Shown here in pieces: positions 3,735 through 47,839 of a stretch of 64,000 nucleotides of DNA. Source of the stretch: Antedon mediterranea (taxonomy: Eukaryota; Animalia; Echinodermata); assembly GCF_964355755.1 (NCBI RefSeq), contig NC_092672.1, positions 21,713,237 through 21,777,236 of the forward strand. The letters are read 5' to 3'. A program made the translations under genes and the position numbers. The stretch's first letter is position 1. Each line of letters starts with the position of its first letter. Below the pieces are notes generated by a model. It did no database searches. It saw only the letters and a list, made by a program, of their open reading frames with translations, and was not told where the DNA came from.

Positions 3735-3738
3735 ATAT

Positions 3739-9524: not shown

Positions 9525-9559
9525 ATAACATTCTAAATATAGTTATCGGAACGTCGATC

Positions 9560-12984: not shown

Positions 12985-13714
12985 TCATCTGTCTGTCTGT
13001 CGGTCTGTCGGTCCGGTATCACTATGCGTTTTATCGCTTTCTGACCTTATCTTGATATCAGTTTAATCTAGCTAGGTCAATTTTTCACAGTATATTCCTT
13101 ATGGCCAGGAATCAATGTGGTTATGTTTTCACGGTGCGCAATAAAAAATTACGCGGTCTACGCACGATTTAACGAAATTACGTTTGTTATCATATCTTCA
13201 CAACCATGAATCACAATTAAATAAAATTTGGTACTCATAAATTTCAGGGCATAAATCATCATATGGCAATACAATTACGTGCGTAGCGCATGTAACGCAT
13301 GCGTAGGCGCGCTTAAAATTTTCAAAATTTATTTTCAATGAAATAAGAGTACGTTTCAGGCAATTTTAAGCGTTTACAAAATTGCCATGAGTGCGCATAT
13401 TTTTGCGCGCCCACTGCGCGTTAAATGTTATTGCGCACTCTTTTTGCCCGATTTCTGTTTTCTTGACTTACTTTTCAACTCGAAATTACGTTATACGAGC
13501 ACGTCAAAAGTTACAGGCTACGCACGTGTAAATTAAAGAAATATAAATGTTTTTAAACATTTCAACATTTTTAAACATGTTCAGTAATTTCAGTCAGTAT
13601 AGTTCACTATGTCGGTCTGTCGGTCTTTCTGTCGGTCTGTCTGTCTGTCGGTATGTCTGTTGGTCCGGTATCACTATGCATTGTAGCACGCGACTTAATG
13701 GCTGTTGGCTTTGT
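12985..13714 (+). mobile_element. Helentron-associated non-autonomous element (HINE/DINE-1-like), 5'-truncated or composite
   Basis: (GTCT/GTCG)n microsatellites and a 3' CACGCGACT plus GGCTGTTGGC end shared with 44853-44980. Confidence 0.6.
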
Positions 13715-15158: not shown

Positions 15159-16040
15159 CATTAACCACTAATGTATAGATGGGCTCTTAAGCTTAACATC
15201 CATAATCTCATTAACCACTAATGTATAGATGGGCTCTTAAGCTTAACATCCATAATCTCATTAACCACTAATGTATAGATGGGCTCTTAAGCTTAACATC
15301 CATAATCTCATTAACCACTAATGTATAGATGGGCTCTTAAGCTTAAAGACCCCTTCCCTGCAATTTTGGACGTTTTTTGGAAAATAATACATATATATCA
15401 CTTTAAAAACATTAAACCATGTCATTCCTTGTCTTAAATGTACGTTTTATGGTAAATTATGATAAAAAGTGAGAAAAAATGCACTACCTAAGTAGCTCGC
15501 GGCGATCGACCTCTCGTGGACGGTCTTAGGCCTAGCCTGGCTAGGCTTAGTTTTGTAGGCCTAGCTGGTAAACATCGGTAACGTGCGAACATCGTACGCT
15601 AGCTATATACCTAGCCTGACGTTGTATAGTTGCTGCATTAATTGTCTTTCTATTTTTGCCAGACTCCGTTGATACAAATTGGGGAAAACCCGGTATTTTC
15701 GCTGAAAAGTTAGGAGTCTTCCATTTGTTTTGGCCTCACGATCGATCGAAAAGTGGGCGAATTACAGGTGAAAAACAAAAATATCAATCCGCGCGCAATG
15801 CATTTTGGGATTTATAGCGGGCCGCTATAATTATTAAAATCGACTTATTTTTCACATTTTTAACCGTTTAAAGACGAAAAAAGTTATCGCAATAGGACCA
15901 TATAGTATTATTTTTACATTAAATATAGTTTGTGATCTTAAATTAGATCTAAAAAACGTAGGGAATGGGGCTTTAACATCCATAATCTCATTAACCACTA
16001 ATGTATAGATGGGCTCTTAAGCTTAACATCCATAATATCA
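15159..16040. repeat. 50-bp tandem repeat (about 5 copies) interrupted by a MITE
   Basis: TTAACCACTAATGTATAGATGGGCTCTTAAGCTTAACATCCATAATCTCA starts at 15161, 15211, 15261, 15311 and 15991. Confidence 0.95.
15347..15972 (+). mobile_element. Non-autonomous DNA transposon with TTAA TSD (Kolobok-like MITE), copy 1
   Basis: TTAA on both sides, imperfect AG(A/C)CCC..TTCCC TIRs, near-identical inverted copy at 19684-20312. Confidence 0.85.
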
Positions 16041-18331: not shown

Positions 18332-18400
18332 CAAGCTGGTCACAACCTCATATGTATGTGCCTGATCAAGGCAGGATCAGATGTGAATGTTGCAAGCGAT
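18332..18400 (+). pseudogene. Partial ankyrin exon (QAGHNLICMCLIKAGSDVNVASD); 5' part and acceptor not recognisable
   Basis: C-terminal two-thirds of an ankyrin repeat ending at a phase-0 GTAAGT donor. No AG 99 bp upstream of the donor. Confidence 0.7.
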
Positions 18401-19683
18401 GTAAGTCATATATTTAACAAAATATTTTATTTTTTTTTCCAATTTAAAAAGTCTAGATTAATTTTTCACAAAATCTACAAATTGGAGTAGTAAAGATTTT
18501 GTCTGATTTAATGTTGTAATTATAGTTACAACATTTTCACTCATCTTAAACCTTATTCATTATTTTAATGATTTACTTACATTAATACATATACAACAAA
18601 TACAATACATTAGTTTATATTTTTGAATGACAGGTTTGTCAAATATAATTGTGGCACATTTCAACAAATTACAGCATATAATTACTGTAGATAAAACCAA
18701 ATTACATTTGCTCATAAGAGCATTATTGTTCTTCGGAATGTGCCTTGGTCTTTGCTCTATCGCCCTACTGTACACCATCTCTTGTAGTATAATATCCCAC
18801 TACCCGGCCTGTGTTAAATATAAAGGCCTCCATGTATACTAATTCATATTATATTTACCTGTTTCAAATGAAAAAAATGGATAGCTAAATTGTTTTAAAT
18901 TTAAAGAAATGCAGAGAATAATTTGCAAGCATCATAATTATACAGTATTTGAACATAATGAACATAACTACCTAAAAGGTAGTCTTCTTTATTGTACCTT
19001 TTTAATATCCTAGATGTGGGTAAAGTACTTTAGAAGAATCCTCTCTCACTTCTCATCTGTGTTGGCATACATATTTTATTTGTTTTATTCTTTGACTTTA
19101 TTTATATATTATCTTTCATTTACATTTAAGCATGCCTAGCCATTATTTGAAAACATTTTCTTATCTTATTTTATGCAATGTTATTGTTATTAATTATATT
19201 CTTCAATTTAAAGTTATGATGTTGATGTTTTCAACAACAGCTAGCTATAGAAAGAAAGTTGATTGAATATAATTATATGTAAATTTTTCAGAAAATTCAG
19301 TCGATGATCACTGGTTTAAAAAAAATATAAATTTAATACAGTATTTAAAATGAATTAATGAAACAAATTATGTATTTCTTCAATGGCTGCAAATGGTAAC
19401 TGGCTGCAGACCTCTTAATTTATTTTAAAGTCAGGTTTTTCAAAATGTACCCAACTTTGTCAATAAATGATCCAATATTGTGAAATAAGTAAATTTATTC
19501 TAATTTTAGCTTTTAATTATGTGAAAATCAGTCTCATACTTATTTTTTTTATCACGAGAGCATAACGGTGTATTACTATCAGCAAGTTTTCAAAGGAAAT
19601 AATGTTCCTCAAATTGTCTAGACTATAAAACAAGTCCTATAGTATAACAATTTGTCCTGATCAATTTTAAATTTGAGTGTTAA

Positions 19684-20312
19684 AGCCCCCTTCCCCACGT
19701 TTTTTAGATCTAATTTAAGATCACAAACTATATTTAATGTAAAAATAATACTATATGGTCCTATTGCGATAACTTTTTTCGTCTTTAAACGGTTAAAAAT
19801 GTGAAAAATAAGTCGATTCTAATAATTATAGCGGCCCGCTATAAATCCCAGAATGCATTGCGCGCGGATTGATATTTTTGTTTTTCACCTGTAATTCGCC
19901 CACTTTTCTATCGATCGTGAGGCCAAAACAAATGGAAGACTCCTAACTTTTCAGCAAAAATACCGGGTTTTCCCCAATTTGTATCAACGGAGTCTGGCAA
20001 AAATAGAAAGACAATTAATGCAGCAACTATACAACGTCAGGCTAGGTATATAGCTAGCGTACATGATGTTCGTACGTTACCGATGTTTACCAGCTAGGCC
20101 TACAAAACTAAGCCTAGCTAGGCTAGGCCTAAGACCGTCCACGAGAGGTCGATCGCCGCGAGCTACTTCGGTAGTGCATTGTTTCTCACTTTTTATCATA
20201 ATTTACCATTAAAACGTACATTTAAGACAAGGAATGACATGGTTTAATGTTTTTAAAGTGATATATATGTATTATTTTCCAAAAAACGTCCAAAATTGCA
20301 GGGAAGGGGGCT
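19684..20312 (-). mobile_element. Non-autonomous DNA transposon with TTAA TSD (Kolobok-like MITE), copy 2
   Basis: Reverse complement of 15347-15972; TTAA at 19680-19683 and 20313-20316. Confidence 0.85.
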
Positions 20313-20579
20313 TTAAATAAAACTTGTCTGCTAAATCTAAAACTTAGTTTTCTTCATCTCTCTGAAATAAAATATTGTTTGAATGCCTTTCTGATGAATT
20401 TGACAGTAAAACAAATGTAATGTCATTGCAAACCATTGTTTATATCACCATGGTTATAAGGACAGTTTTAAAGAAAACTGAATAGGCCAAATTTGTTTTG
20501 TTACGTTTTGTGTCCAGGATTTGAATGTACAAAATATGTGAATGATGGTCGTACAGCTCAGATGTGTTTACATACCATA

Positions 20580-28908: not shown

Positions 28909-29649
28909 TTAAGTCATAAATTAATGTTTGTATTGAGAACCATTCAGGATCAGAATCCTAAATTTTATTCTTCATTTTAGTTTAAAATTCTTGTTCCTCA
29001 AACAGAAGCACAAAATGTAACCTAAGAATGGAATTATTTTATTATGGTATAGAGGCTACTTGTTAATACCTTCATATTTTTTTCTTATTTGAAATTTTTA
29101 TTAAATTGTCTAATTATTCTACATCTTGAATTTAACATATTTATACCATCAAGATAGTGCAGACAAGTCAACATTAACAACAACAAAATAAACAAGTTTA
29201 AAATGCTATTTTTTGGGCTATTAAAAAGCTGCAGTTAATCTAGCAATCATTTGGTGGATTACTGTAATTTAGTTATTAATTCTCTATTAAATAAATGTCA
29301 GGAAAACTATAGCGCTTAGATTGCTTAGTGCTTGAAGTTGCTTGTTGGTATGACAACTACAACTAATGCAGATCCTGCATTGTATCTGTCTCAGAATATC
29401 CTTGTTTAATCAATCTTTTTAAAACTTTTTTAATCATTACATTAGTAATGCTAATTTTAATACACGATTATAATATTATTGAATGCATTTCATGCATTTC
29501 TCATTTGTTTCATGCTGCACAATTTTGATGTGTCAGGCACGTTTTTGATGGTAATGGTATCTTGGACCTTGTGTGAATGGATAAAAGAGTAGTAAAAGTG
29601 GGACTTCAGCCCAAAGTTAACCTTGATGTATTTCCTGATTACGTAATAT

Positions 29650-29830
29650 CCGCCAGGTGTTTCTAATGAAGGTCGTTTCCGCCAGGTGTTTCTAATGAAG
29701 GTCGTTTCCGGCAGGTGTTTCTAATGAAGGTCGTTCATTTCCTGTTATTGTATTAGTTATGTAACTTCCTGCAGGTGTTTCTAATGAAGGTCGTTCTTTT
29801 CCTGGTTTCGTACTAGTTATGTAATTTCCG
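29650..29830 (+). repeat. Subterminal tandem repeats (29-bp x3 running into 60-bp x2); mirrored at ~43980-44160
   Basis: CCGCCAGGTGTTTCTAATGAAGGTCGTTT units directly visible. Confidence 0.92.
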
Positions 29831-30541
29831 CATAATAGTCCAATTTGACCAAAAATGATTTACATGAAAAAACTATACTTTAAACAAAAAATCAAATTGA
29901 TTGCAAGCTGCTGGAATTGGGGTTTTGGTTGAATGCCATTACAGTTTGTTTTTTTTTGCGGAGAGGTTATCCTGCAGGTCTAGTCAGTCGTGGTTATAAC
30001 AATGGTTAACAATGGGGATAGTATAAGACAATAGAGTATATCATTTCACTAGAATTGTTATATAGATTTGTTATATATTAATATACATTATAATATAAAA
30101 TTAATAAATATTAAATAAAAATGATATGGTAATTTAGTTGCTTGTGATGAGAACAAAATGGTTTACAATGGTTGAAGTCAATAGGTGTTATGTTTCGGAT
30201 TATAATACAATGGTTAACATAGGGTAAGGAAGTGAGACAATATAGTTTTTGTAAGATTTGAATTAGTCATAGAGTCAATAAAGATGCACCTGGTTAATTC
30301 AAACTAGTTAATTGAGGTTTTTGCTTGATGTATGCCGACATAATCCAAAGACATAAGTTATTTGATCCGGATATTATAACAATGACTAAAACAAAAAGAT
30401 AAGAATGAATGAAGTTAAATAATAAGTATGTCTTGATTGAACTATACCGACAGGTAATTAACCATCTTCCGGATTTGTTAACAAAGGGGGATAAATCGAA
30501 AGCAGTGACACGGGGTGTTTGACATACTAAAGTTTAATGTG

Positions 30542-30755
30542 TGACGTCATGATGTTAGTTTCACTATTTTTGATGATTTTTGTTTTCCAATGTTTAGTTT
30601 TATTGTCATTTAAATTGGTTACGTTTACAAAAAGATTTCTTTGTTTCCTTTTAAAATAAAACAAAAAGTGGGTAAAGAGGGACGCTACTGACACCATGCA
30701 TAAATTTTTTTAGTGTGTATAAATATATGGGTAAATTTATAGTGAACTCATCAGT
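30542..30755 (+). promoter_or_regulatory. Putative Pol II promoter of pPolB (mirror ~43024-43237)
   Basis: TGACGTCA (CRE) at 30542, TATAAATA at 30718, TCAGT initiator-like motif at 30751, ATG at 30817. Confidence 0.55.
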
Positions 30756-30816
30756 ACCAGCTTACAACGCACTAAACTCACTTCCACATTCTTGATTAAG
30801 AGAATTTTATTTTACA

Positions 30817-33800
30817 ATGGCTCATTACGAATCATCATCATCATCTTCCGATTCTAACGATAGCTTGTTTATCGAATGCCAGAGAGCAGTAGAAGCTATC
30901 GTTAGTTTATCGCGAAACAATATCGAAAATATCGATACCGACGAGGTTATCCCCGATGTTGGACTACTAGAAGATTTCGTATAATGACCAGGATCTTGAT
31001 TTAGATGTTAGCCAGAGTGTTTCTGAAGCCGATAGCCTCTCACTTTCGGATATTTGTAATAACGCTATTGAGATAGTGCAGGAGCTATCGGCTAATTTGC
31101 GTATTGATGACATAGAAGTAGGTGTTTGTTTTATTTTATTTTTTACGTAATATTTATTTTACCGTGTATAATTCTAAAAAAGTAGATTGTAATTGGGGGC
31201 ATTTACAAAGTGTTTCTGCGTTTTCGGTTTATATACGTTTTCCTTTCTAATTTATCTAATTATTTTTATTTCTGTATAGTACGGTGTTGGTGCTCACACC
31301 AAATGTTTGAGTTTGAGAGGAAATGTCGAGATTAATGATTCAGCGGAGTCTTCGATTATTGAGGTAACTATCGTTTTATTTTCTTTACTACTGTTGTTGT
31401 TGTTGTTGTTGTTGTTGTCGTACAACGTCTTTTATTTCTTTTTCTTTACTGTTTTTCTCTTTTTGTTTTCAGCCTGTACCCATACAGTACGGAAGGGGCG
31501 TTAATAGAAAGAGGCTCAGAATCGAAGACGGGGAAGAAGAAGAAGAAGAAGAATTTGCCGACATTGATACTGTTGAAGACGAGGACCTTAACCTTGATGA
31601 GGTAGAGTTGAATCACTTCTGTAGAATCGTTCAAGTAGCTGATAGGTATAATCAACGTTTTAACGCGACTATTAGCGATTTTTTAGTAAATTTTTTAATA
31701 TTGATCATATAAGTTTAGAGGTGTTTCTGCCCACACTGTATCGAATTTTCGAGCATGTCGTCGATAATCTCTGCGTTAACGTGCATGTCGACGACATGAT
31801 TCGAATAGTCATACAGGCTGAGGGGTTAGATTCACCTATCTCTATCCCTTTTGGACGGAGGGGCCATCTTACGGCTGACGTTATTTTTGCAGCCATTATG
31901 AAGGTCCTTCAGTCCAAAACGGATATTTTTATTAATAACAAATTTAAATTTAACGTTCTTCACATGAGAATGCCTAGGGGTGGGGGCTATAGAAGAAACG
32001 GTATCGACATATTGTTAAATGCTAAATGTATAATTAAGATTAAGAATGATGATAACGAAACTATCTGCTGCGCACGCGCTATTGTTACGGGTATTTCTAT
32101 GCTCGAAGACAAAATTAACAACGTGGCTAGATGGAATAACGTTAGGCAAGGTAGGGGTCAGCAAAAAATAGCCGCCCTTCATTTACTTAGAGATTCGGTG
32201 GTTAGGGAGCAGACATGCGGCATCGAGGAAATAAAAAAGATGCAATCAAAATTACCAAATTACCAAATTATTGTCATTTCAAAAGACAATTTAAATTCTG
32301 TCATTTTTAGCGGCGATTATAGAAAGAAGCAGATATATCTTTATCATCATTCTAATCATTACGATCTCATAACCACAATGACAGGTTTTCTAAAATTTGA
32401 CTATTTCTGCGATAGATGTCATAAGGGGTATAATCACAAATACCAACACAATTGTCAATTTACGTGCGTGCTGTGTAAGCACAATGACTGCCCCTCTTCT
32501 AATTCTTTTGAAAATAGAGAGAGTAGAATAGAATGTAGAGAATGTAATAGATTTTTTAAGGATAAGCAATGTTTCACCAATCATAAAAAATCTCCTGATT
32601 CTAAAGTTTCAGTATGTGGCAAAATTAAAAATTGTTCAATTTGTAATAGGATCGTTCAAAAAGATCACAATTGTCAAAACCGCTTTTGTAGAATTTGTAG
32701 GACTTTCGTTTCATACGATCATCAATGCTACATGGAACCGGTTGTAGCCCCTAAGCATACTGAAAGAAAGTTTAAGAATCAGGAGGCCCGTAACAGAGCT
32801 GTCACCAAATATTTCTTTTTTGATTTCGAATGCACGCAAGATACAGGCGAACACAAACCAAATTTATGCGTTCTTCAAAAAACTTGTCTTAATTGTATCG
32901 ACGGTGCTAATGATTCTGCCGATTGTGACGTGTGTGGGGATAAAACAGTGGTTTTTCACGGGGGTCTGCATGCGAAGATTTCTGCAATTACGTATTCAAG
33001 ATTACAAATTTAACGAAAATATTACGTGTATCGCTCACAACTTCCAGGGTTATGATAGTTACTTCGTGCTCAACTACCTGTACGAAAACTCCATTGTACC
33101 GGATGTAATTGCTCGCGGTGGTAAACTTATTTCGATTAGGACTAAAGAAACGAGCATTCGATTCATCGATTCCCTTTCATTTCTACCCATGCCTCTATCC
33201 AAATTGCCCAAAACTTTTGGCATCTCCGAACTTAAAAAGGGTTACTTTCCTCATTATTTTAATTCTTTAGAAAACCAAAATTACGTAGGTCCTTACCCCG
33301 ATTCTTCAAATTATTCCCCCGATAAAATGACTACTTCAGGTCGAGAATCTTTCTTTAAATGGTACAACCAGAAAATTGAAAGTAATCAAGTATTAATTGA
33401 TCTTAAAAAAGAACTCGTCGAGTATTGTATCAGCGATGTAGATATTCTCAGAAAGTGTTGTCTTACTTTTAGACATCTTTTTTTGAAAGTAACTATATCG
33501 CCGAAAAACCCTCTACTCGGCGGTGTTGACCCCTTTTCAAATAATTTAATGACAATTGCCTCAGCGTGTAACCACGTATTTTCTAGAAATTTTTTAAAAC
33601 CGTCCACCATCGCTCTATTTCCACCATCAGGGTATCTAACAACCGTTAACCATTCTCACTCTAGCATGGAATGGCTGTGCTACGAGTCGCATAAAAAGGG
33701 GGTCTTTATCCATCATGCTAGAAATGGAGGGGAAAAATTGTTTGGGCCTTACTTCGTCGACGGCTCATGTTTAGAAAGCAAAATAATTTTCGAATTTATG

Positions 33801-35408
33801 GGTTGTTTTTTCCACGGGTGCCAAGATTGTTATAGACCCGATTCCATTAATCCCTTCAATAACGAGACCATGTTGGAATGCTTTGTCAAGACAAGCAAGA
33901 AATCACGGTTTCTGAAGGAACAATTTCCGGATTTCGAATACGTCGAAATTTGGGGGCACGAATGGAAACGGATCAAAAAATCGTTGGCCCCAAACATTAA
34001 ATCTATCGTCTCCAAAGTTCCTTTAATTAGGCAAACTTTGAATCCAAGAGACGCGTTTTTCGGTGGGAGGACTAATGCCAGTTGTTTGTTCTATAAGGTA
34101 AAACCGGGTGAAGAAATTAATTACATAGATTATACTTCCTTGTACCCTTATGTAAATAAATACGGTACCTACCCCGTAGGGCATCCTGCAATCAATGATC
34201 GCAACGACATGTCCACGGATATCAACGATTATTTCGGCTTGATAAAGTGTACAATCGAAGCGCCTAAAAAATTATTCCATCCGGTCTTACCTTATAGATC
34301 AAACGGTAAATTAATGTTTGCTCTCTGTAGAACATGCGCCGATTCCCAACAACAAACCGCTTGCAATCATTCCGGTACAGATAGAGAATTTACGGGTTCT
34401 TGGGCAACGATCGAAGTTGCTAAAGCCGTGGAAGTTGGGTACGAGATACGTAAAGTTCACGTAGTATGGCACTTTAAAAATAAAAGCGCGTACTCTGCAG
34501 ATTCTCCCTCGTCCGGCCTATTTGCCTCTTACATTAACACCTTTTTAAAATTGAAACAAGAAGCTTCGGGTTGGCCTGAATGGTGTAAAACGCCCGAAGA
34601 TAAACAAAAATACATTTCGGACTATCGAACCGTAGAAGGTATCGACTTGAATCATGACGACATTGCGTACAATCCTGGGCTTCGATCTCTGGCCAAATTA
34701 ATGCTAAATAGTTTTTGGGGTAAATTTGGCCAGCGTGAAAATCTCACGAAAATTAAATATACGCAAGATCCTAACGAGGTTTACGATATTTTATCGAACC
34801 CTGGGATAACCGTTCATGACATAAATTTTGTTAATGATGATTTGGCGGAGGTAAAATACGAGGACGAGGAACAATTTGTAGAAGTTAACCGAAAGGTTAA
34901 CGTTGTCATTGCCGCATTTACCACAGCGTTAGCGCGTTTAAAATTGTACGAGCTGTTGGAACAATTACAGGAGCGCGTCCTGTATTATGATACCGACAGC
35001 GTAATCTTCGTATCAAAACCCGGGGATTGGGACCCTCCCCTGGGCGACTATTTGGGTCAGTTAACGACCGAGGTCGATCCTAAAGATGGTAAATTCATCG
35101 AGTCCTTCGTTTCTGGGGGGCCTAAGAACTACGCCTATAAATTGGATACGGGGAAGACCGTTTGTAAAGTTAAGGGTTTTACCCTTAACTTTACAAACGC
35201 TCAGAAAATTAATTTTGACACCGTCTCCAATATGGTAAGGGGTGTTGGCCCCGATACAATTAAGACGGTTGAGAAGAATCGCATAACGCGCAAGCCAAAA
35301 ACACGAAAGATAGTCAACGAAACATCGACTAAAGACTATCGAATCGTGTACGACAAAAGAATTATTATCGAAAATTATCGCACAGTTCCTTACGGGTATG
35401 TTTGGTGA
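30817..35408 (+). pseudogene. pPolB: Protein-primed DNA polymerase B, left-arm copy with 3 frameshifts (exons 30817-31117, 31280-31363, 31473-35408)
   Basis: Mirror of the right-arm gene. 2-bp deletion near 30982, 1-bp loss in the T-run near 31691, 1-bp loss in the G-run near 32960. Confidence 0.9.
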
Positions 35409-35644
35409 ATCACGGCCATAAATTTCTTTTTAAAAATGTAAACATACTTTGTTATAGATAATTATTTGTTACTCTTTATACATTCTTTACCGTACTCTCC
35501 CTCTTTTTATAGTTTGAACAAAATATATTTGTAGTTTTAATGTAAATATTTTTATATCTGTTTTAATATAAATAATTTTTATACCCGTTTTTTAAAGTCG
35601 AATTTTTGCTGGTTAAGTAAATATATTTTTAAATATTTTTCCGC

Positions 35645-36140
35645 TTGATTTTCTTATGTCGATACCGTTTCTCTTTTTGTAGATTAAGTACATATATTTC
35701 GTAATTTTAATTTAAATATTTTACCACTTGAATTCTTATGTCGATACCGTTTCTCCTTTTTGTAGATTAAGTAAATATATTTTTCCACTTGAATTTCTTA
35801 TGTCGATACCGTTTCTCTTTTTGTAGATTAAGTAAATATTGTTATAACTGTTTTAATGTTAATAAATTTTATACTTATAATATCTATTTTTTTAGATTAA
35901 GCAATATTTTTGTAATTTTAATTTAAATATTTTACCACTTGAATTCTTATGTCGATACCGTTTCTCTTTTTTTTTTGTAGATTAAGTAAATGTTGTTATA
36001 ACTGTTTTAATGTTAATAAATTTTATACTTATAAAGTCGATTTTTGTAGATTAAACAATATTTTTGTATTTTCAATTTAAATATTTTTCGACTTGAATTC
36101 TTATGTCGATACCGTTTCTCATTTTGCGGATTAAGCAAAT
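35645..36140 (+). repeat. Degenerate repeat array, 5 copies of CTTGAATTCTTATGTCGATACCGTTTCTC...AGATTAAG (mirror ~37638-38132)
   Basis: Conserved core at about 35655, 35737, 35799, 35948 and 36102, with AT-rich, mutually related linkers. Confidence 0.9.
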
Positions 36141-36636
36141 ACATTTTTGTAAAGTTATTTTTGTTTTATACGAAATTTGAAATAAATTTAATCACTGTAC
36201 TTGTTTTATAATATATATACTTGTCTGTTTCTTAATGTCGTCGTTGGATACGATAAATTAAAAAATTACAGTCACCATTACGTACGTCTTTTGTTGTTGT
36301 TGTTTGTTACCGTCATCGTTTATAGATTTATTCTTTATAAGTATGTCGATTAATTTCAGAATCAAAAACTTGTTACATAAGAAAAAAAAAAAATGGTCAT
36401 GAAATTCGTTAAATAAAAAATAATTTATCAAGAATCTTTTTACATAAATTTTATTTTATCATTAAATTTGTTACATAAAAATAATTTGTCAAGAATCTTT
36501 TTGCATAAAATTTATTTTGTCATTAAGTTTGTTACATAAAAAAAAAAAAAAATAATTGTTTCATGAATCTTGTTACATTTTTTAAATTTTTGTTTTCAAC
36601 TACTTATATGAAAATTCAAGTTAAGAACGCAGTATA

Positions 36637-36800
36637 ATGACAATGACTGAGCGTTTAGTAACACCTTTCACCGCGGTGATTAGCGGACAGACTTCCTCCG
36701 GTAACTCGGTATTTGTTAACAATCTTTTAGAAAATAATTACTTTAAAAAAATAAAACAAGTCGTTTGATGATATGACATAGTGTTATGGCGAATATCAAA
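36637..36800 (+). pseudogene. 5' stub of the Polinton DNA-packaging ATPase, left arm
   Basis: MTMTERLVTPFTAVISGQTSSGNSVFVNNLLENN...KQVV** and then, frameshifted, CYGEYQ. Matches the Polinton ATPase N-terminus as I recall it (PFT..isGptgsGKt.fv..ll...wCYGewQ); the Walker A Lys is Asn. Confidence 0.75.
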
Positions 36801-36979
36801 CTTAGTTAGAGAAGTAAATACTGTTTGTGTTTACATGCGTGTCATAGTAGAGTTTGTAATTACGTTTTTTACACAACTAACGACAACATAATAATACATT
36901 TCTATATTGAAAAAACGTAATTACAAACTCTACTATGACACGCATGTAAACACAAACAGTATTTACTTCTCTAACTAAG

Positions 36980-37143
36980 TTTGATATTCGCCATAACACT
37001 ATGTCATATCATCAAACGACTTGTTTTATTTTTTTAAAGTAATTATTTTCTAAAAGATTGTTAACAAATACCGAGTTACAGGAGGAAGTCTGTCCGCTAA
37101 TCACCGCGGTGAAAGGTGTTACTAAACGCTCAGTCATTGTCAT
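36980..37143 (-). pseudogene. 5' stub of the Polinton DNA-packaging ATPase, right arm
   Basis: Mirror of 36637-36800 with the same inactivating lesions. Confidence 0.75.
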
Positions 37144-38365
37144 TATACTGCGTTCTTAACTTGAATTTTCATATAAGTAGTTGAAAACAAAAATTTAAAA
37201 AATGTAACAAGATTCATGAAACAATTTTTTTTTTTTATGTAACAAACTTAATGACAAAATAAATTTTATGCAAAAAGATTCTTGACAAATTATTTTTATG
37301 TAACAAATTTAATGATAAAATAAAATTTATGTAAAAAGATTCTTGATAAATTATTTTTTATTTAACGAATTTCATGACCATTTTTTTTTTTCTTATGTAA
37401 CAAGTTTTTGATTCTGAAATTAATCGACATACTTATAAAGAATAAATCTATAAACGATGACGGTAACAAACAACAACAACAAAAGACGTACGTAATGGTG
37501 ACTGTAATTTTTTATTTTATCGTATCCAACGACGACATTAAGAAACAGACAAGTATATATATTATAAAACAAGTACAGTGATTAAATTTATTTCAAATTT
37601 CGTATAAAACAAAAATAACTTTATAAAAATGTATTTGCTTAATCCGCAAAATGAGAAACGATATCGACATAAGAATTCAAGTCGAAAAATATTTAAATTG
37701 AAAATACAAAAATATTGTTTAATCTACAAAAATCGACTTTATAAGTATAAAATTTATTAACATTAAAACAGTTATAACAACATTTACTTAATCTACAAAA
37801 AAAAAAAGAGAAACGGTATCGACATAAGAATTCAATTGGTAAAATATTTAAATTAAAATTACAAAAATATTGCTTAATCTAAAAAAATAGATATTATAAG
37901 TATAAAATGTATTAACATTAAAACAGTTATAACAATATTTACTTAATCTACAAAAAGAGAAACGGTATCGACATAAGAAATTCAAGTGGAAAAATATATT
38001 TACTTAATCTACAAAAAGGAGAAACGGTATCGACATAAGAATTCAAGTGGTAAAATATTTAAATTAAAATTACGAAATATATGTACTTAATCTACAAAAA
38101 GAGAAACGGTATCGACATAAGAAAATCAAGCGGAAAAATATTTAACAATATATTTACTTAACCCGCAAAAATTCGACTTTAAAAAACGGGTATAAAAATT
38201 ATTTATATTAAAACAGATATAAAAATATTTACATTAAAACTACAAATATATTTTGTTCAAACTATAAAAAGAGAGAGAGTACGGTAAAGAATGTATAAAG
38301 AGTAACAAATAATTATCTATAACAAAGTATGTTTACATTTTTAAAAAGAAATTTATGGCCGTGAT

Positions 38366-41300
38366 TCACCAAACATACCCGTAAGGAACTGTGCGATAAT
38401 TTTCGATAATAATTCTTTTGTCGTACACGATTCGATAGTCTTTAGTCGATGTTTCGTTGACTATCTTTCGTGTTTTTGGCTTGCGCGTTATGCGATTCTT
38501 CTCAACCGTCTTAATTGTATCGGGGCCAACACCCCTTACCATATTGGAGACGGTGTCAAAATTAATTTTCTGAGCGTTTGTAAAGTTAAGGGTAAAACCC
38601 TTAACTTTACAAACGGTCTTCCCCGTATCCAATTTATAGGCGTAGTTCTTAGGCCCCCCAGAAACGAAGGACTCGATGAATTTACCATCTTTAGGATCGA
38701 CCTCGGTCGTTAACTGACCCAAATAGTCGCCCAGGGGAGGGTCCCAATCCCCGGGTTTTGATACGAAGATTACGCTGTCGGTATCATAATACAGGACGCG
38801 CTCCTGTAATTGTTCCAACAGCTCGTACAATTTTAAACGCGCTAACGCTGTGGTAAATGCGGCAATGACAACGTTAACCTTTCGGTTAACTTCTACAAAT
38901 TGTTCCTCGTCCTCGTATTTTACCTCCGCCAAATCATCATTAACAAAATTTATGTCATGAACGGTTATCCCAGGGTTCGATAAAATATCGTAAACCTTGT
39001 TAGGATCTTGCGTATATTTAATTTTCGTGAGATTTTCACGCTGGCCAAATTTACCCCAAAAACTATTTAGCATTAATTTGGCCAGAGATCGAAGCCCAGG
39101 ATTGTACGCAATGTCGTCATGATTCAAGTCGATACCTTCTACGGTTCGATAGTCCGAAATGTATTTTTGTTTATCTTCGGGCGTTTTACACCATTCAGGC
39201 CAACCCGAAGCTTCTTGTTTCAATTTTAAAAAGGTGTTAATGTAAGAGGCAAATAGGCCGGACGAGGGAGAATCTGCAGAGTACGCGCTTTTATTTTTAA
39301 AGTGCCATACTACGTGAACTTTACGTATCTCGTACCCAACTTCCACGGCTTTAGCGACTTCGATCGTTGCCCAAGAACCCGTAAATTCTCTATCTGTACC
39401 GGAATGATTGCAAGCGGTTTGTTGTTGGGAATCGGCGCATGTTCTACAGAGAGCAAACATTAATTTACCGTTTGATCTATAAGGTAAGACCGGATGGAAT
39501 AATTTTTTAGGCGCTTCGATTGTACACTTTATCAAGCCGAAATAATCGTTGATATCCGTGGACATGTCGTTGCGATCATTGATTTCAGGATGCCCTACGG
39601 GGTAGGTACCGTATTTATTTACATAAGGGTACAAGGAAGTATAATCTATGTAATTAATTTCTTCACCCGGTTTTACCTTATAGAACAAACAACTGGCATT
39701 AGTCCTCCCACCGAAAAACGCGTCTCTTGGATTCAAAGTTTGCCTAATTAAAGGAACTTTGGAGACGATAGATTTAATGTTTGGGGCCAACGATTGTTTG
39801 ATCCGTTTCCATTTGTGCCCCCAAATTTCGACGTATTCGAAATCCGGAAATTGTTCCTTCAGAAACCGTGATTTCTTGCTTGTCTTGACAAAGCATTCCA
39901 ACATGGTCTCGTTATTGAAGGGATTAATGGAATCGGGTCTATAACAATCTTGGCACCCGTGGAAAAAACAACCCATAAATTCGAAAATTATTTTGCTTTC
40001 TAAACATGAGCCGTCGACGAAGTAAGGCCCAAGCAATTTTTCCCCTCCATTTCTGGCATGATGGATAAAGACCCCCCTTTTATGCGACTTGTAGCACAGC
40101 CATTCCATGCTAGAGTGAGAATGGTTAACGGTTGTTAGATACCCTGATGGTGGAAATAGAGCGATGGTGGACGGTTTTAAAAAATTTCTAGAAAATACGT
40201 GGTTACACGCTGAGGCAATTGTCATTAAATTATTTGAAAAGGGGTCAACACCGCCGAGTAGAGGGTTTTTCGGCGATATAGTTACTTTCAAAAAAAGATG
40301 TCTAAAAGTAAGACAACACTTTCTGAGAATATCTACATCGCTGATACAATACTCGACGAGTTCTTTTTTAGGATCAAATACTTGATTACTTTCAATTTTC
40401 TGGTTGTACCATTTAAAGAAAGATTCTCGACCTGAAGTAGTCATTTTATCGGGGGAATAATTTGAAGAATCGGGGTAAGGACCTACGTAATTTTGGTTTT
40501 CTAAAGAATTAAAATAATGAGGAAAGTAACCCTTTTTAAGTTCGGAGATGCCAAAAGTTTTGGGCAATTTGGATAGAGGCATGGGTAGAAATGAAAGGGA
40601 ATCGATGAATCGAATGCTCGTTTCTTTAGTCCTAATCGAAATAAGTTTACCACCGCGAGCAATTACATCCGGTACAATGGAGTTTTCGTACAGGTAGTTG
40701 AGCACGAAGTAACTATCATAAACCTGGAAGTTGTGAGCGATACACGTAATATTTTCGTTAAATTTGTAATCTTTGAATACGTAATTGCAGAAATCTTCGC
40801 ATGCAGACCCCCCGTGAAAAACCACTGTTTTATCCCCACACACGTCACAATCGGCGGAATCATTAGCACCGTCGATACAATTAAGACAAGTTTTTTGAAG
40901 AACGCATAAATTTGGTTTGTGTTCGCCTGTATCTTGCGTGCATTCGAAATCAAAAAAGAAATATTTGGTGACAGCTCTGTTACGGGCCTCCTGATTCTTA
41001 AACTTTCTTTCAGTATGCTTAGGGGCTACAACCGGTTCCATGTAGCATTGATGATCGTATGAAACGAAAGTCCTACAAATTCTACAAAAGCGGTTTTGAC
41101 AATTGTGATCTTTTTGAACGATCCTATTACAAATTGAACAATTTTTAATTTTGCCACATACTGAAACTTTAGAATCAGGAGATTTTTTATGATTGGTGAA
41201 ACATTGCTTATCCTTAAAAAATCTATTACATTCTTTACATTCTATTCTACTCTCTCTATTTTCAAAAGAATTAGAAGAGGGGCAGTCATTGTGCTTACAC

Positions 41301-42962
41301 AGCACGCACGTAAATTGACAATTGTGTTGGTATTTGTGATTATACCCCTTATGACATCTATCGCAGAAATAGTCAAATTTTAGAAAACCTGTCATTGTGG
41401 TTATGAGATCGTAATGATTAGAATGATGATAAAGATATATCTGCTTCTTTCTATAATCGCCGCTAAAAATGACAGAATTTAAATTGTCTTTTGAAATGAC
41501 AATAATTTGGTAATTTGGTAATTTTGATTGCATCTTTTTTATTTCCTCGATGCCGCATGTCTGCTCCCTAACCCCCGAATCTCTAAGTAAATGAAGGGCG
41601 GCTATTTTTTGCTGACCCCTACCTTGCCTAACGTTATTCCATCTAGCCACGTTGTTAATTTTGTCTTCGAGCATAGAAATACCCGTAACAATAGCGCGTG
41701 CGCAGCAGATAGTTTCGTTATCATCATTCTTAATCTTAATTATACATTTAGCATTTAACAATATGTCGATACCGTTTCTTCTATAGCCCCCACCCCTAGG
41801 CATTCTCATGTGAAGAACGTTAAATTTAAATTTGTTATTAATAAAAATATCCGTTTTGGACTGAAGGACCTCCATAATGGCTGCAAAAATAACGTCAGCC
41901 GTAAGATGGCCCCTCCGTCCAAAAGGGATAGAGATAGGTGAATCTAACCCCTCAGCCTGTATGACTATTCGAATCATGTCGTCGACATGCACGTTAACGC
42001 AGAGATTATCGACGACATGCTCGAAAATTCGATACAGTGTGGGCAGAAACACCTCTAAACTTATATGATCAATATTAAAAAAATTTACTAAAAAATCGCT
42101 AATAGTCGCGTTAAAACGTTGATTATACCTATCAGCTACTTGAACGATTCTACAGAAGTGATTCAACTCTACCTCATCAAGGTTAAGGTCCTCGTCTTCA
42201 ACAGTATCAATGTCGGCAAATTCTTCTTCTTCTTCTTCTTCCCCGTCTTCGATTCTGAGCCTCTTTCTATTAACTCCCCTTCCGTACTGTATGGGTACAG
42301 GCTGAAAACAAAAAGAGAAAAACAGTAAAGAAAAAGAAATAAAAGACGTTGTACGACAACAACAACAACAACAACAACAACAACAGTAGTAAAGAAAATA
42401 AAACGATAGTTACCTCAATAATCGAAGACTCCGCTGAATCATTAATCTCGACATTTCCTCTCAAACTCAAACATTTGGTGTGAGCACCAACACCGTACTA
42501 TACAGAAATAAAAATAATTAGATAAATTAGAAAGGAAAACGTATATAAACCGAAAACGCAGAAACACTTTGTAAATGCCCCCAATTACAATCTACTTTTT
42601 TAGAATTATACACGGTAAAATAAATATTACGTAAAAAATAAAATAAAACAAACACCTACTTCTATGTCATCAATACGCAAATTAGCCGATAGCTCCTGCA
42701 CTATCTCAATAGCGTTATTACAAATATCCGAAAGTGAGAGGCTATCGGCTTCAGAAACACTCTGGCTAACATCTAAATCAAGATCCTGGTCATTAAATAC
42801 GAAATCTTCTAGTAGTCCAACATCGGGGATAACCTCGTCGGTATCGATATTTTCGATATTGTTTCGCGATAAACTAACGATAGCTTCTACTGCTCTCTGG
42901 CATTCGATAAACAAGCTATCGTTAGAATCGGAAGATGATGATGATGATTCGTAATGAGCCAT
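38366..42962 (-). CDS. pPolB: Protein-primed family B DNA polymerase, open 3-exon gene (42962-42660, 42497-42414, 42301-38366), predicted 1440 aa
   Basis: ExoI FFDFECTQD, ExoII HNFQVYD, ExoIII YCISDVDIL; Pol motifs DYTSLYP, KLMLNSFWGKFGQ, YYDTDS, GPKNY. Two GT-AG phase-0 introns join the ATG exon in frame to the 1266-aa ORF. Confidence 0.95.
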
Positions 42963-44852
42963 TGTAAAATAAAATTCTCTTAATCAAGAATGTGGAAGTG
43001 AGTTTAGTGCGTTGTAAGCTGGTACTGATGAGTTCACTATAAATTTACCCATATATTTATACACACTAAAATAATTTATGCATGATGTCAGTAGCGTCCC
43101 TCTTTACCCACTTTTTGTTTTATTTTAAAAGGAAACAAAGAAATCTTTTCGTAAACGTAACCAATTTAAATGACAATAAAACTAAACATTGGAAAACAAA
43201 AATCATCAGAAATAGTGAAACTAACATCATGACGTCACACATTAAACTTTAGTATGTCAAACACCCCGTGTCACTGCTTTCGATTTATCCCCCTTTGTTA
43301 ACAAATCCGGAAGATGGTTAATTACCTGTCGGTATAGTTCAATCAAGACATACTTATTATTTAACTTCATTCATTCTTATCTTTTTGTTTTAGTCATTGT
43401 TATAATATCCGGATCAAATAACTTATGTCTTTGGATTATGTCGGCATACATCAAGCAAAAACCTCAATTAACTAGTTTGAATTAACCAGGTGCATCTTTA
43501 TTGACTCTATGACTAATTCAAATCTTACAAAAACTATATTGTCTCACTTCCTTACCCTATGCATAGAGTTGATAACAACTCCCTGCCCTATGTTAACCAT
43601 TGTATTATAATCCGAAACATAACACCTATTGACTTCAACCATTGTAAACCATTTTGTTCTCATCACAAGCAACTAAATTACCATATCATTTTTATTTAAT
43701 ATTTATTAATTTTATATTATAATGTATATTAATATATAACAAATCTATATAACAATTCTAGTGAAATGATATACTCTATTGTCTTATACTATCCCCATTG
43801 TTAACCATTGTTATAACCACGACTGACTAGACCTGCAGGATAACCTCTTCGCAAAAAAAAACAAACTGTAATGACATTCAACCAAAACCCCAATTCCAGC
43901 AGCTTGCAATCAATTTGATTTTTTGTTTAAAGTATAGTTTTTTCATGTAAATCATTTTTGGTCAAATTGGACTATTATGCGGAAATTACATAACTAGTAC
44001 GAAACCAGGAAAAGAACGACCTTCATTAGAAACACCTGCAGGAAGTTACATAACTAATACAATAACAGGAAATGAACGACCTTCATTAGAAACACCTGCC
44101 GGAAACGACCTTCATTAGAAACACCTGGCGGAAACGACCTTCATTAGAAACACCTGGCGGATATTACGTAATCAGGAAATACATCAAGGTTAACTTTGGG
44201 CTGAAGTCCCACTTTTACTACTTAAAAGGCAAACAACTTTGGGGAATACATTTTTGTTATACTGATGTTGTCACAAAAGTTTGTAGTTTTTCTGATTTCA
44301 GGATATGTTATTTGTAAAGTAATGGCATAAAATTTAAACTGAATTCAAATTCCCAGGGATGATTAAATACTTTAACATTTTCCAACCACAATTCTGTATC
44401 AAGGTGCGATGTACATACATAACATGGCTCCCTGCAAAGATAAATTATGAAACTGACAGTATCATCACTTTTGCTTTGCATACACAACAATAGTGGCTCC
44501 TTGACGGGGAATTGATTACAATAATATTAACTACTGACATTCAATGATTGAAGTTTCTCCTTCATCTAATGTTCAAGCAGTATTGTTATAATTTTTTTAT
44601 TATTGAGAATTGTCCTATAATTTCACACATAAATTAATTATTCCCTCAGATTTGGAATCAAAATAAAATATACATTGACTTAGTAATGTATTTAATAATT
44701 GCCCTGATTCAATACACAACTATTAACTTAGATTGTATACTGGCTTTTTCTTTTATCCAAATGTACATATGAAAAACATAAGCACTCATTTTGAGGACTT
44801 GTGATGAGTTGAAAAACAAATAACAATATTATCAAGTTAAAGTTCAATACAA

Positions 44853-44980
44853 TTTTAGTCGCGTGGACGCGACTCTATAGTTCACTATGTCGGTTGGTCG
44901 GTCTGTCGGTCTGTCTGTCGGTCCGTCGGTCTGGTATCACTATGCGTTTAGCACGCGACTTATGGCTGTTGGCCTTGTTT
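44853..44980 (+). mobile_element. Minimal HINE/DINE-1-like Helentron derivative
   Basis: TTTT, AGTCGCGTG with adjacent inverted ACGCGACT, (GTCG/GTCT)n, 3' CACGCGACT, short GGC..GCC stem, TT flank. Confidence 0.7.
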
Positions 44981-47839
44981 TCGTAATAGTCAAATGAATA
45001 CAAAACAGAAAATATATGTAAGTTACACAATTTGTTTAAAAAGTAGCATGAAAACATATAAAATAAAATATATGATTAAAGGTAATGACCATTACAGGAA
45101 CCAGAACTTAAAATAAAATAAAATCAACAGAAATATAGAAAATAGCATATTATTTTCATCAGGAAAATTATTATATAAAAGTTTTTCTAATTAGAAACAA
45201 TGGTTAAATCAAGACTATTCCACTTATATTTGAGGTAAAACATAATTTTTTGTTTAAAATAATTGCCAAACTCTGCAATCCTCCAAAAAACATAGCAAAC
45301 CTCATTTAAACAACAAAAAAGTGATTGAATAAGTAGTGTACAACTCACTTGGTTTGTCAATTAAAATGTAAATATATTTTTGTTAAATACTTAAATTTGT
45401 GGTTAAGCATCATTTTTGGGTTTAAAAAATAATTTCTAAACCTTCACTCTCGAATTAGAGGGGGCGTAATCACCAGCCCAAACAATGTTACAGTACTGTA
45501 TAAGTAAAACATTTTATTTTAATTTCTTTAGAATACTAATAAATTTAGATATTTTATTTGATAAAAATTGTTGGCAGCCAATAATCCAATTAAAAGACCA
45601 AGGAATGCTTCACTTATTAATTTTCCATTACAAAAATATAACAATTGTTGTGTGTAAGTTTATATCTAATACAATTTGTTTTAGCCGTATTAATTAATAA
45701 TTGGTTTGTAGTGAACCATTCACTAGCTTACTTAACTCTAAATTTAAAAAGTTTAACAATACATCAATATTGATATAAAGTTGTATATAGCGAAACAACT
45801 TGAAAATATCATGGATAACAACATCAAAAGTTTTTTGATAAATCTAGAAAAGTACTTAATAAAATTAATTGTTTTTAAATGCAGTATTAACAGAATTAGT
45901 GAGTTCAAGAAAAGCATGACAAGTGGTATGGTATGCATACATTTTTCAATATTTTTTTTTAAATGGTTAAAATTAAGATTGGTAAATATTAAAATATAAA
46001 GTACTGTATATCCGTTTTGAAATACAAGATTAACTTAAAATTGTAATATGATTAGGTAAATAACCCATCATGAATGATTAATTAATGGCGTATGTGAGAT
46101 GGCTTATAATTAAGAAGCAACCTTTTTAAGAATCATGCTCTAAACCTTTACTAGAATTCAAATTACTAATTATATTAAGCACTTCTGTTTCAGATATAAA
46201 TGAGAGGCTTTATGGGAGGTAGTAATTAAGAGATTAGGTCTTTGGTATTTTTAGGTTAGAATTACAGAGTTTTACACATTTTTGAAAAATAATTTAATTA
46301 CATTCTGGCTAATTAGGTTTGTATCATAAAAATATTCATCATTAATTTTTTTAACATGAGGTGTATTTCTACTTTCTTTACCAGGATTAATTACAGAATG
46401 TATTACTTCTCATTTTTTATGTTACATTTAATCTGATTGAATTTAGTTTTGTAGCATTTTTTTCTTTGAAATTTTACAGAGTGCAGTAATATTGTTGCTA
46501 TACTTTTTATATCTTGAGATATTTGAACATTTATGAATTTGTTAAAGTTTATGCTTATGTTTACTAACTTTGTTTAGATGGGGTAGGTAGAGTGGTGTCA
46601 TCCATAGTTGTTTTAGTGTTTGGGTTTTTTTTCTTGAACTGCAAAAAGTATATAAAAAAATGTATCCAACATTAAAATTAACTTTATAGTTTAAACGAAT
46701 CAGTTTGAGAAAGATCAAAGCAAAATGCCCCTATATCTCTATATGTGCGAAAAGGGTAAAAACCCCTTAATGCAGGCTACCGTTAGACCACCTCTGGGCC
46801 TAGTAAAATTGCGGTAATATTACCGTCACGGTCTTACTGTAAGCCTGATCTGTGTGAAGAGTCCACGATATAAGGCCTGCTTTACGCAGCGAAGCAAGGA
46901 TAAATTCGGGACATTTTACTTGATTGAGAAAGACTGTGGCAATTATTTTAGGCCAAATTATTAGATTATATCAATATATATTTTTGTAGGTAAAATAATA
47001 CAATGGAAGAATACGGGCAATAATAATACAAATATAACAGATGTTGGTCCAAAGATTATTTAACTTGCTGTAACGTACGTAAGCCTAGGCCCTAGTTAGC
47101 ATAGTTCTAGCGGGAATATCCTGTGGTGTGCGCGCCTGGTGCTAGCTCATAACAGCTTCTGATAATTAAATTCGCGTCTATTTGTAGGCCTAATAGATTT
47201 TGTTTCTGTATAATGGCCATCACGATCGGGCAGTTTTAGCACGGAGTGGTGTTGGGCAAAAATATAGGTTTTATGCATCATAATAAAGACCAATAAAACT
47301 AAACGACGGACACACCAAACATCATCAGTAAACATGTGCGCGCATGGCATTTTTCGTCGGCAGTGCCCTCCATTTTTTTTTTCTAAAAAAGTGCGACCTC
47401 TATTTTATGAAGACAGTAATCTTTAAATATTGCACCTTTTAACTGTGGCCTTTCACACAGAAAATGGTAATGGCAATAATACCAGCTTGCTTACTGGGAT
47501 ATTGCCGCAATTCTATGTGAAAAGGGCTTAATTCAGTCTGAATGGTCAGGAACGTCAACCATAATCAATTATTTTTTAAATAGGTAAATGATCAGAGATG
47601 TCTGAATTGTAATACCCAATAAAATATCAAAATTGGTAGGCCTATTGTTTGTGTAAAAATAATCAATAAGTTCTGCATTAGTTTTTGTAATTCTCGTTGG
47701 TTTAGAAATCGTAGGGAAAAAAGTACAATAGTTTATAAGATGATATAAAACAATTATTAAATAGATTATGCTTATTAAATTTGATTAAAACAATTAATTT
47801 ATAATAACCGCAAAATGTTCTATGTTATTAGATTTCAGT

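Follow-up and report, generated by a model that had tools for sequence, protein, structure and literature searches.

A mirror-image, polymerase-only Polinton-like element in the genome of Antedon mediterranea

The 64,000-nucleotide stretch of Antedon mediterranea DNA analysed here (contig NC_092672.1; hereafter the window) contains a 14.6 kb element of which 99.7% is inverted repeat, two arms facing each other across a short central spacer (Table 1). Alignment and reading of the junctions reproduce exactly the arm coordinates, 39 bp spacer, AGTAGT/ACTACT ends and TAAAAG target-site duplication (TSD) given in a first-pass annotation. The arms are 99.3-99.7% identical by alignment, differing by 31 substitutions and 10 indels, one of which is 31 bp long, and they pair perfectly for 170 bp outward from the spacer. 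The spacer has no stable fold of its own, and the search for its origin elsewhere in the element or window gave a best ungapped match of 22/39 positions and a longest shared word of 13 bases. Mirroring is absent beyond the ends of the element, where 53 of 200 flank positions are complementary, and the first 22 bases occur twice in the window at three or fewer mismatches, against 0.00 expected from shuffles. The chance of an exact 6-mer TSD match is about 5-7 x 10^-4. No Rfam matches were obtained across positions 29000-45000.

Table 1. Features of the palindromic element and its target site (window coordinates)
Feature	Coordinates	Strand	Remarks
Left TSD copy, TAAAAG	29582..29587	.	Read at junction; uninterrupted single-copy form in run X4
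Left arm, 7,283 bp	29588..36870	+	Polinton polymerase end; begins AGTAGT
Subterminal 29-bp and 60-bp tandem repeats	29649..29830	+	Mirrored at 43981-44161
Left pPolB, broken	30817..35408	+	Start mirrored from right-arm exon prediction
AT-rich tandem arrays between polymerase and ATPase remnant	35534..36543	.	Mirrored at 37231-38240
Decayed packaging ATPase 5' end	36622..36800	+	Walker A region, then frameshift and stops
Central spacer, 39 bp	36871..36909	.	Non-palindromic
Right arm, 7,313 bp	36910..44222	-	Inverted copy of left arm; terminates in ACTACT
Mirror copy of decayed ATPase 5' end	36980..37158	-	
Right pPolB main exon, open frame	38366..42301	-	Catalytic motifs kept; private changes at conserved columns
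Predicted pPolB exon 2, 84 nt, phase 0	42414..42497	-	Splice dinucleotides and frame only
Predicted pPolB exon 1, acidic, 101 codons from ATG, phase 0	42660..42962	-	Sequence prediction; or separate small ORF
Right TSD copy, TAAAAG	44223..44228	.	

Polintons, or Mavericks, have (AGT)2//(ACT)2 ends, a 6 bp TSD, terminal inverted repeats (TIRs) of 46-1,447 bp and a length of 12.7-24.6 kb in a vertebrate set (Barreat & Katzourakis 2021, PMC8097293; review PMC6431247). The element resembles them in its AGT/ACT ends and 6 bp TSD, in a polymerase gene (pPolB) that reads inward and is followed by an ATPase, and in a length within that range; its termini thus fall within the pattern of AGT- or AG-repeat ends with a 6 bp TSD, the motif being as in PMC8097293. 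It differs from them in an inverted repeat that reaches 7.3 kb, in carrying the polymerase twice, and in having no integrase, protease or capsid-size gene and only a stub of the ATPase. Where a Polinton would have TIRs of 0.05-1.5 kb around a unique, gene-bearing core, the element has 7.3 kb arms around a core of 39 bp. The subterminal repeats are likely part of the terminal repeat of the parent element, a role assigned by inference.

The main exon of the right pPolB gives a Pfam DNA_pol_B_2 match (E 1.8e-43) that places its product among the protein-primed family B polymerases, and the acidic residues of Exo I-III and Pol A-C are kept. With a domain model taken from PMC11161782, the predicted order is a terminal-protein-like domain, vOTU, exonuclease, VSR-like insert and polymerase. 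The vOTU cysteine and histidine are invariant across 69 sequences, and a structural model (pLDDT 85) matches the pPolB N-termini of adintovirus and mavirus (E 1e-10 and 1e-7), the same model giving a weak match to OTU domains (best E 0.002). The terminal-protein assignment is a prediction from the order of secondary structures and these matches to viral models; fusion of terminal-protein and vOTU regions to the polymerase is consistent with self-priming. Two small exons upstream probably form the start of the gene, and the first of them has no Pfam match above cut-off. Among 1,086 homologues of the polymerase the best are 43-47% identical and come from sea cucumber, bivalve and amphioxus records, while a collection of 15 billion sequences holds no exact protein match and a direct search of viral contigs returned no polymerase relatives. 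The left pPolB carries three one-base indels near 31,690, 32,960 and 33,000, all within single-base runs, which represent either mutation or consensus error. To the description of pPolB as the only large gene, present twice, the analysis adds that the left copy is split and only the right frame is open.

A result new to this analysis is that both arms consist of a Polinton's polymerase end, truncated about 230 bp past the start of a decayed packaging-ATPase gene. Profile matches to the ATPase lie at 36622-36771 in the left arm (E 1.3e-5) and 37158-37009 in the right (E 2.3e-4); for the left stub tblastn gives E about 2e-4, and the Pfam Adeno_IVa2 match (E 0.045) does not reach the cut-off. What remains in each arm is about 50-60 decayed codons from the N-terminal part, short of a full packaging ATPase. 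The arrangement has parallels among 90 related loci, which hold 26 ATPase ORFs: in 9 of the 22 loci for which a distance was computed, the ATPase lies on the same strand, at most 650 bp downstream of pPolB. Two of the nine (L038 and L051) are complete elements with ordinary 0.5 kb TIRs, integrase and protease. The longest inverted repeat among the 90 loci is 502 bp, most of them being short contigs, where a long palindrome would be collapsed. Longer contigs match the element only over the Walker A stretch, at 81%, and searches for a helper sharing the element's termini returned none, the terminal 22-mer having 0 matches in viral contigs. The loss of integrase and capsid genes noted in the first-pass annotation is borne out within the window, where a profile from 17 related-locus integrases (six frames), a protease profile from 14 sequences and profiles of two capsid-size clusters, of 440 aa (14 sequences) and 280 aa (11), all gave 0 matches. 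The two clusters are putatively capsids, to judge from size and position, Pfam having given no name.

The distance between the arms is 0.43%, and the differences are evenly distributed over the arm length (KS p 0.50). Those in coding sequence comprise 12 nonsynonymous and 3 synonymous changes (pN 0.0042 vs pS 0.0040). These comparisons of sequence indicate that the two arms are of common descent and have since decayed neutrally, and that neither polymerase copy is under selection now. Replication of this copy by its own polymerase in the present day, as first envisaged, is not supported, given the neutral differences and the damage to both pPolB copies.

Contigs from public sequencing runs bear on the centre of the element, its target site and its copy number. 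Runs X3-X6 derive from one sample, which may be the source of the window; X2, with a share of 0.05, was left out, and X7 and X8 contain hardly any of the element's words, which is no proof of absence. The spacer bins are covered in two of four runs, X3 and X4, and empty in X1 and X6, where a hole proves nothing. A 69 bp contig of X3 spans 36869-36939; on the arm side its bridge from spacer to right arm extends over 30 letters, where the bridging threshold asks for one more, and none of the contigs listed bridges the left spacer junction. Two versions of the spacer are present in X4, several centre-proximal forms coexist in the public-run contigs, and X1, a run under another organism label, departs from the element at 36927 and continues with 298 different letters; the centre is therefore not common to all relatives. 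The empty form is represented by five X4 contigs in which letters of the left flank (19 identical) run directly into position 44223 with one TAAAAG, the uninterrupted target for which the first-pass annotation had proposed a search, and the TSD is thus genuine. The centre is likewise real, the spacer being joined to the arm in independently assembled contigs, and the presence of such contigs together with an uninterrupted target makes an assembly fold-back unlikely. In units of the rarest family variant, contig depth, which is not copy number, is 18-19 for pPolB, 3-4 for each spacer version and 10-22 for the right-flank contig. Given these values, a single polymorphic locus in a pooled sample would also be compatible with the contigs, and what looks like the empty form may come from a further copy of a host repeat. 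Among the loose ends listed, none marks a second insertion site. The two spacer versions and the centre-proximal forms, with depth as a hint, thus speak mildly for the mobile family originally proposed, but no second flank was seen to accompany them.

On balance we favour the view that the element is a fold-back defective Polinton replicon, one of a small family, that a helper's integrase inserted as a unit. That it is a fold-back derivative of one Polinton end, as the initial reading had it, is supported: integrase and capsid-size genes are missing, the TSD is genuine, and the centre is present in independently assembled contigs. One native end has been duplicated in inverted orientation, leaving two identical origins, and Polinton ends and TSD are kept while the integrase is lost, as in a non-autonomous Polinton. 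In the mechanism proposed, the polymerase would start at the polymerase-side terminus, switch template or fold back near the ATPase gene, and copy back to the same terminus, generating a palindrome that would replicate with two origins. The displaced strand of such a palindrome would snap into a full-length hairpin whose open end would again be a duplex origin, so that only a polymerase with fused terminal protein would be needed to copy it and the arms would stay alike. A complete Polinton would supply the integrase in trans, and likewise the capsids if the element were ever packaged, and its integrase would have inserted the element as one unit. The element would belong to a small family sharing the dead ATPase, and this copy would have been decaying since insertion. 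No short pre-existing inverted repeat that primed the fold is demonstrable, parent sequence past the centre lying outside the data, and an inner mirror copy of the terminus, considered as a fold primer, was rejected, there being none at five or fewer mismatches in 20 bases. Keeping the polymerase forces the arms to about 6 kb, so the length of the element alone says little about packaging.

Palindromes of comparable design are known from other protein-primed systems. Esteban et al. (1997) reportedly obtained palindromic phi29 TP-DNA replicons in which one end was duplicated in inverted form by template switching, with a hairpin intermediate, and the F1/F2 inverted-dimer and hairpin plasmids of pGKL1 from K. 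lactis are said by Kikuchi et al. (1985) to have arisen by the same route. By analogy, the element likely works as these do; the phi29 and pGKL1 forms are extrachromosomal, laboratory-derived and not known to integrate, whereas the element is chromosomal and has an integrase-type TSD. Foldback elements (Drosophila FB, Galileo, Tetris) are non-autonomous members of cut-and-paste transposase families, with a TSD and long inverted arms made of short tandem repeats, while the arms described here are a coding half of a Polinton. In being a near-complete palindrome from one genome end, and helper-dependent, the element also resembles the snap-back or copy-back defective viral genomes treated in the available part of PMC13506859, which are described mainly for RNA viruses and whose snap-back forms are there said to be without coding capacity; unlike them it is heritable dsDNA and has kept its polymerase gene. 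Integrase-less Polinton remnants of C. elegans likewise consist of TIR and pPolB from the polymerase end, but as portrayed in the available part of 10.1101/2024.01.15.575659 they are one-sided, whereas here the mirror is complete, both ends are native and the TSD is intact. Targeted literature searches found no palindromic Polinton. The available parts of PMC12910113, PMC9863843, PMC9415595, 10.1101/2022.07.12.499685 and 10.64898/2026.07.28.741278 describe no whole-element palindromes, the last reporting 52-nt terminal palindromes only.

The principal alternative, which we regard as unlikely, is conversion in place: an ordinary or already deleted Polinton would have inserted with its TAAAAG TSD, and later break repair, starting from the short terminal repeat or from a fold-back, would have copied the left half over the right, a one-off rearrangement whose product was never mobile. 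Such conversion would explain the TSD, sister arms and neutral decay equally well, and has a precedent in the C. elegans Polinton repeats, which, in the available part of 10.1101/2024.01.15.575659, drive local inversions and leave the integrase-less remnants mentioned above. The lack of a second locus among the loose ends listed also agrees with it, and the two spacer versions could be alleles in a pooled sample. It accounts less readily for the dead ATPase and centre-adjoining stretch common to all compared forms, that from X1 included, for the coexistence of several centre-proximal forms, and for the fact that, among the rows listed, no contig extends the element's ATPase (at >=90%) into a longer gene.

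It is quite improbable that two separate copies, inverted relative to each other and nested or adjacent, underwent recombination within the terminal repeat with loss of the middle to give a pseudo-palindrome. Exchange with other copies is possible, since the left-arm state of the 31 bp indel is present in contigs of X3, X4 and X5, but both arms end at the same base, and the synonymous excess expected of two independently active copies is missing, albeit over only 15 coding differences. The arms also share private letters. Of the 38 element places listed, out of 321 in all and with two flank rows set aside, 30 agree between the arms, including 4 where all four public runs show only another letter; at the remaining 8 the letter in the right arm is largely private. 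Palindromes are known to give rise to read artefacts, the three left-pPolB frameshifts are each one base short in a single-base run and no compared contig spans the whole element, yet fold-back reads or a mis-joined collapsed repeat are a very remote explanation for a mirror that stops exactly at the element termini, with TSD and unrelated flanks, whose arms differ by 31 substitutions and an indel with its other state in public contigs, whose spacer is joined to the arm in separately assembled contigs in two versions, and whose flanks are joined in an empty form.

The model of Polinton replication, by excision, protein-primed self-synthesis and reintegration, was inferred from gene content, and to our knowledge the process has not yet been watched in an animal. 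Judging from phi29 and the yeast linear plasmids, this model predicts as a by-product just such a one-end palindrome, integrated with a clean TSD, and palindromes of this kind make the model testable. More tentatively, with the chances slightly against it, animal Polintons may routinely spawn heritable satellites of this kind: full-length fold-back palindromes of capsid size that keep only the polymerase, replicate via a hairpin and borrow integrase and capsid from complete Polintons, the element being a recent member of a class overlooked because surveys ask for integrase alongside polymerase and the arms collapse in short reads. If true, these satellites would be a genomic record of Polinton strand-displacement replication and a germline analogue of defective-interfering particles. 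The surveys in PMC8097293 and 10.1101/2023.08.22.554363 do select elements by integrase and polymerase, and polymerase-only elements are therefore invisible to them. Within the host genome, a 7.3 kb near-perfect palindrome with a 39 bp loop is a candidate for a fragile site, and transcripts reading through it would be expected to form long double-stranded RNA against the Polinton polymerase.

The first-pass annotation's description of the palindrome, its ends and the TAAAAG duplication proved exact in the arm alignment, the count of the terminal 22-mer and the comparison of the flanks. The arms are inverted copies at 99.3-99.7% identity (31 substitutions and 10 indels) on either side of a 39-bp spacer, from which the next 170 bp outward pair perfectly. 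The element starts with AGTAGT and finishes with ACTACT, the window contains two copies of its terminal 22-mer where 0.00 would be expected, and TAAAAG lies on either side, a match with a chance of about 5-7 x 10^-4; past TAAAAG the flanks lose mirror symmetry (53/200 complementary). These end and target-site features are shared with non-autonomous Polinton derivatives, whereas the autonomous class differs in having the integrase, protease and capsid-size genes that this element lacks. Its arms are five times as long as the longest terminal inverted repeat (TIR) in the PMC8097293 set. The 31-bp indel between the arms contains a small hairpin and is bounded by 7-bp direct repeats, and its shorter state is common in contigs of sequencing runs X3, X4 and X5.

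Features of the palindromic element and other repeats in the window
Feature	Position	Details
Gypsy-type LTR retroelement	about 3329-9667	GC-rich; split ORFs; gag/PNMA, RNase H and N-terminal helix-hairpin-helix matches
Direct repeats of Gypsy-type element	3439-3720 and 9207-9485	98.9% alike
Relative of short repeat at 44655-44981	13631-13715	
Second inverted-repeat element	15343-20316	about 5 kb; TIRs of 639 bp, 97.8% identical; TTAA both sides
Palindromic Polinton-derived element	29588-44222	14,635 bp
Left arm	29588-36870	
Spacer	36871-36909	39 bp
Right arm	36910-44222	
Stretch beside centre	36928-36975	48 bp
Walker A stretch	37064-37121	58 bases
Right pPolB main exon	38366-42301	strand -
Arm indel	43555-43592	31 bp
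Very high-copy short repeat	44655-44981	with 4-bp microsatellite

Each arm carries, 1.2 kb past the stop of the polymerase gene pPolB, the decayed 5' end of the gene for a packaging ATPase (E 1.3e-5 and 2.3e-4 with the ATPase profile), a stub that begins 233 bp short of the element centre. By gene order the ATPase is commonly the next same-strand gene after pPolB in related Polintons, lying at most 650 bp away on that strand in 9 of the 22 loci with a computed distance. Among the nine are two metagenome-contig loci, L038 (1-13696) and L051 (209-17899), apparently complete Polintons whose core genes all share a strand and whose TIRs measure about 0.5 kb; in L051 a PC4-like ORF lies close to the right end as well. 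In vertebrate Mavericks, polymerase and ATPase form one inward-pointing module, according to PMC8097293. Profiles from 19 clusters (each of at least four related loci, the polymerase cluster skipped) were searched against the window, where the relatives' other conserved genes gave no match, the remaining hits being alternative pPolB frames. The element thus consists of the initial 7.3 kb of a Polinton and its mirror image. Close to the fold, forms of the family differ: in X3, X5 and X6 contigs the 48-bp stretch beside the centre recurs as a tandem repeat together with 39 further letters, within a variant that exceeds the window's by about 300 bp.

Two pPolB copies had been claimed; the right one is open, and the left is split by three one-base indels, each within a single-base run, which may therefore be consensus error. 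The right frame encodes 1,203 aa from the first ATG (Pfam E 1.8e-43), and likeness to relatives begins about 80 codons upstream of it; splice sites predict two small upstream exons with phase 0 joins, giving a protein of about 1,440 aa. The vOTU Cys and His in the N-terminal part are invariant (n=69 sequences). A structure model of this part (pLDDT 85) matches adintovirus and mavirus polymerases, and OTU domains weakly (best E 0.002). Its sheet-and-two-helix domain N-terminal to the vOTU is a putative terminal protein, fitting the one described in PMC11161782. A VSR-like insert was recognised by motif; VSR domains occur in pPolB2 of molluscs and marine nematodes, as 10.1101/2023.08.22.554363 reports. 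Introns, the Gypsy-type element and the nearest relatives of the polymerase suggest an animal host.

We favour, with reasonable though limited confidence, an origin by fold-back or strand switch during protein-primed copying near the ATPase. Strand-displacement copying would start at the polymerase-side end, in the neighbourhood of the ATPase gene the nascent strand would fold back or switch onto the strand being displaced, and copying would return to the same terminus, yielding a product with two identical origins. The displaced strand of such a palindrome would form a full hairpin that restores the duplex origin, so that the fused terminal protein and polymerase might suffice for copying, and integration would require the integrase of a helper, a complete Polinton acting in trans. 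Palindromic phi29 replicons from Esteban in 1997, and F1/F2 of pGKL1 from Kikuchi in 1985, are reportedly precedents for a fold-back product. Snap-back defective genomes (PMC13506859) are a further one. No description of a palindromic Polinton was found in the literature searched, whose scope stopped short of the founding Polinton papers, Repbase reports and supplements, and an earlier mention may exist elsewhere. Section 10 of PMC6431247, which puts Polintons typically at 15-25 kb, names no palindromic form, and two large surveys (PMC8097293, 10.1101/2023.08.22.554363) admit elements only with integrase and polymerase.

The same letter occurs in both arms at 30 of the 38 element places listed out of 321, with two flank rows set aside; at 4 of the 30 all four runs carry only another letter, and at the other 8 the right-arm letter is largely private. 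The arms thus share descent from a single molecule, or underwent homogenisation, and drifted afterwards. That one half was copied over the other after insertion at the site we consider unlikely, and recombination between two copies distinctly more so. Drift between the arms is neutral: their pPolB differences comprise 12 amino-acid-changing and 3 silent (pN 0.0042, pS 0.0040), evenly spread along the arm. At 4 of the 12 changed places the right pPolB shows a residue shared by no more than 1 of 29 relatives, at positions on which 20-27 of them agree. With a rate of 2-5 x 10^-9 per site per year assumed, the arm distance of 0.43% (95% range 0.29-0.61%) corresponds to about 0.4-1 million years, a figure that gene conversion between the arms would make too young. 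Given its neutral drift, changes at conserved residues and small arm distance, this copy is a young fossil rather than a functioning replicon, and the proposed self-replication by its own polymerase is not supported for it at present.

Contigs of five runs (X1, X3, X4, X5, X6) among eight listed were compared with the window in two sets, X1, X3, X4 and X5 in one and X1, X3, X4 and X6 in the other. The empty site that had been anticipated was found in five X4 contigs, which join the left flank to 44223 with one TAAAAG; their 19 left-flank letters are identical to 29563-29581, and since the flank looks repeated, this form confirms the TAAAAG duplication but not presence or absence at the locus. 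Among the matches listed, the spacer is covered by contigs of X3 and X4 and uncovered in X1 and X6. One X3 contig covers 36869-36939, departing from the window by a single letter and a 2-bp gap, its 30 arm-side letters being one too few for the bridging rule for contig joins. X3-X6 are one sample, maybe the window's source, so the spacer contigs are an independent assembly and not surely an independent individual. An assembly or library artefact is the least credible explanation of all, because the mirror stops exactly at the element termini, the short state of the 31-bp indel occurs in public contigs, and the spacer is found in separately assembled contigs of X3 and X4. The element is genuine, a fold-back derivative of a Polinton that was inserted cleanly.

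The run contigs contain two spacer versions, both present in X4, and a form about 300 bp longer adjoining the centre. Relative to the rarest family variant, contig depth is 18-19 units over the polymerase, 7-8 over the inner arm in its window-type form and 3-4 over either version of the spacer, ratios that would fit most copies being palindromes, with the proviso that contig depth is not copy number. As flank depth is itself 10-22 units, the sample may be a pool with one polymorphic locus. No second flank was seen among the matches listed for X1 and X3-X6, nor any complete Polinton with the same ends in the contigs searched. X1, from another study and under another organism label, has the arm at about 97-99% identity, little right flank and different sequence past 36927; two other runs of that study contain next to none of the arm, and patchy insertion, interspecies transfer or mixing of samples could account for this. 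Contigs of 208, 546 and 1,982 bp in X1, X3 and X6 match only the Walker A stretch, with 11 differences, and diverge to either side; they probably represent the ATPase gene of another, more distantly related Polinton present in these samples, possibly the helper. That palindromic Polinton satellites able to copy themselves form a general class is a tentative proposition, on which doubt slightly outweighs belief.

Elsewhere in the window, the second inverted-repeat element has no ORF of at least 100 aa and is adjoined at its left end by a 50-bp tandem repeat of 3.8 copies; from its TTAA target it is presumably of non-autonomous Kolobok or piggyBac type. The very high-copy short repeat lies 430 bp to the right of the palindromic element.
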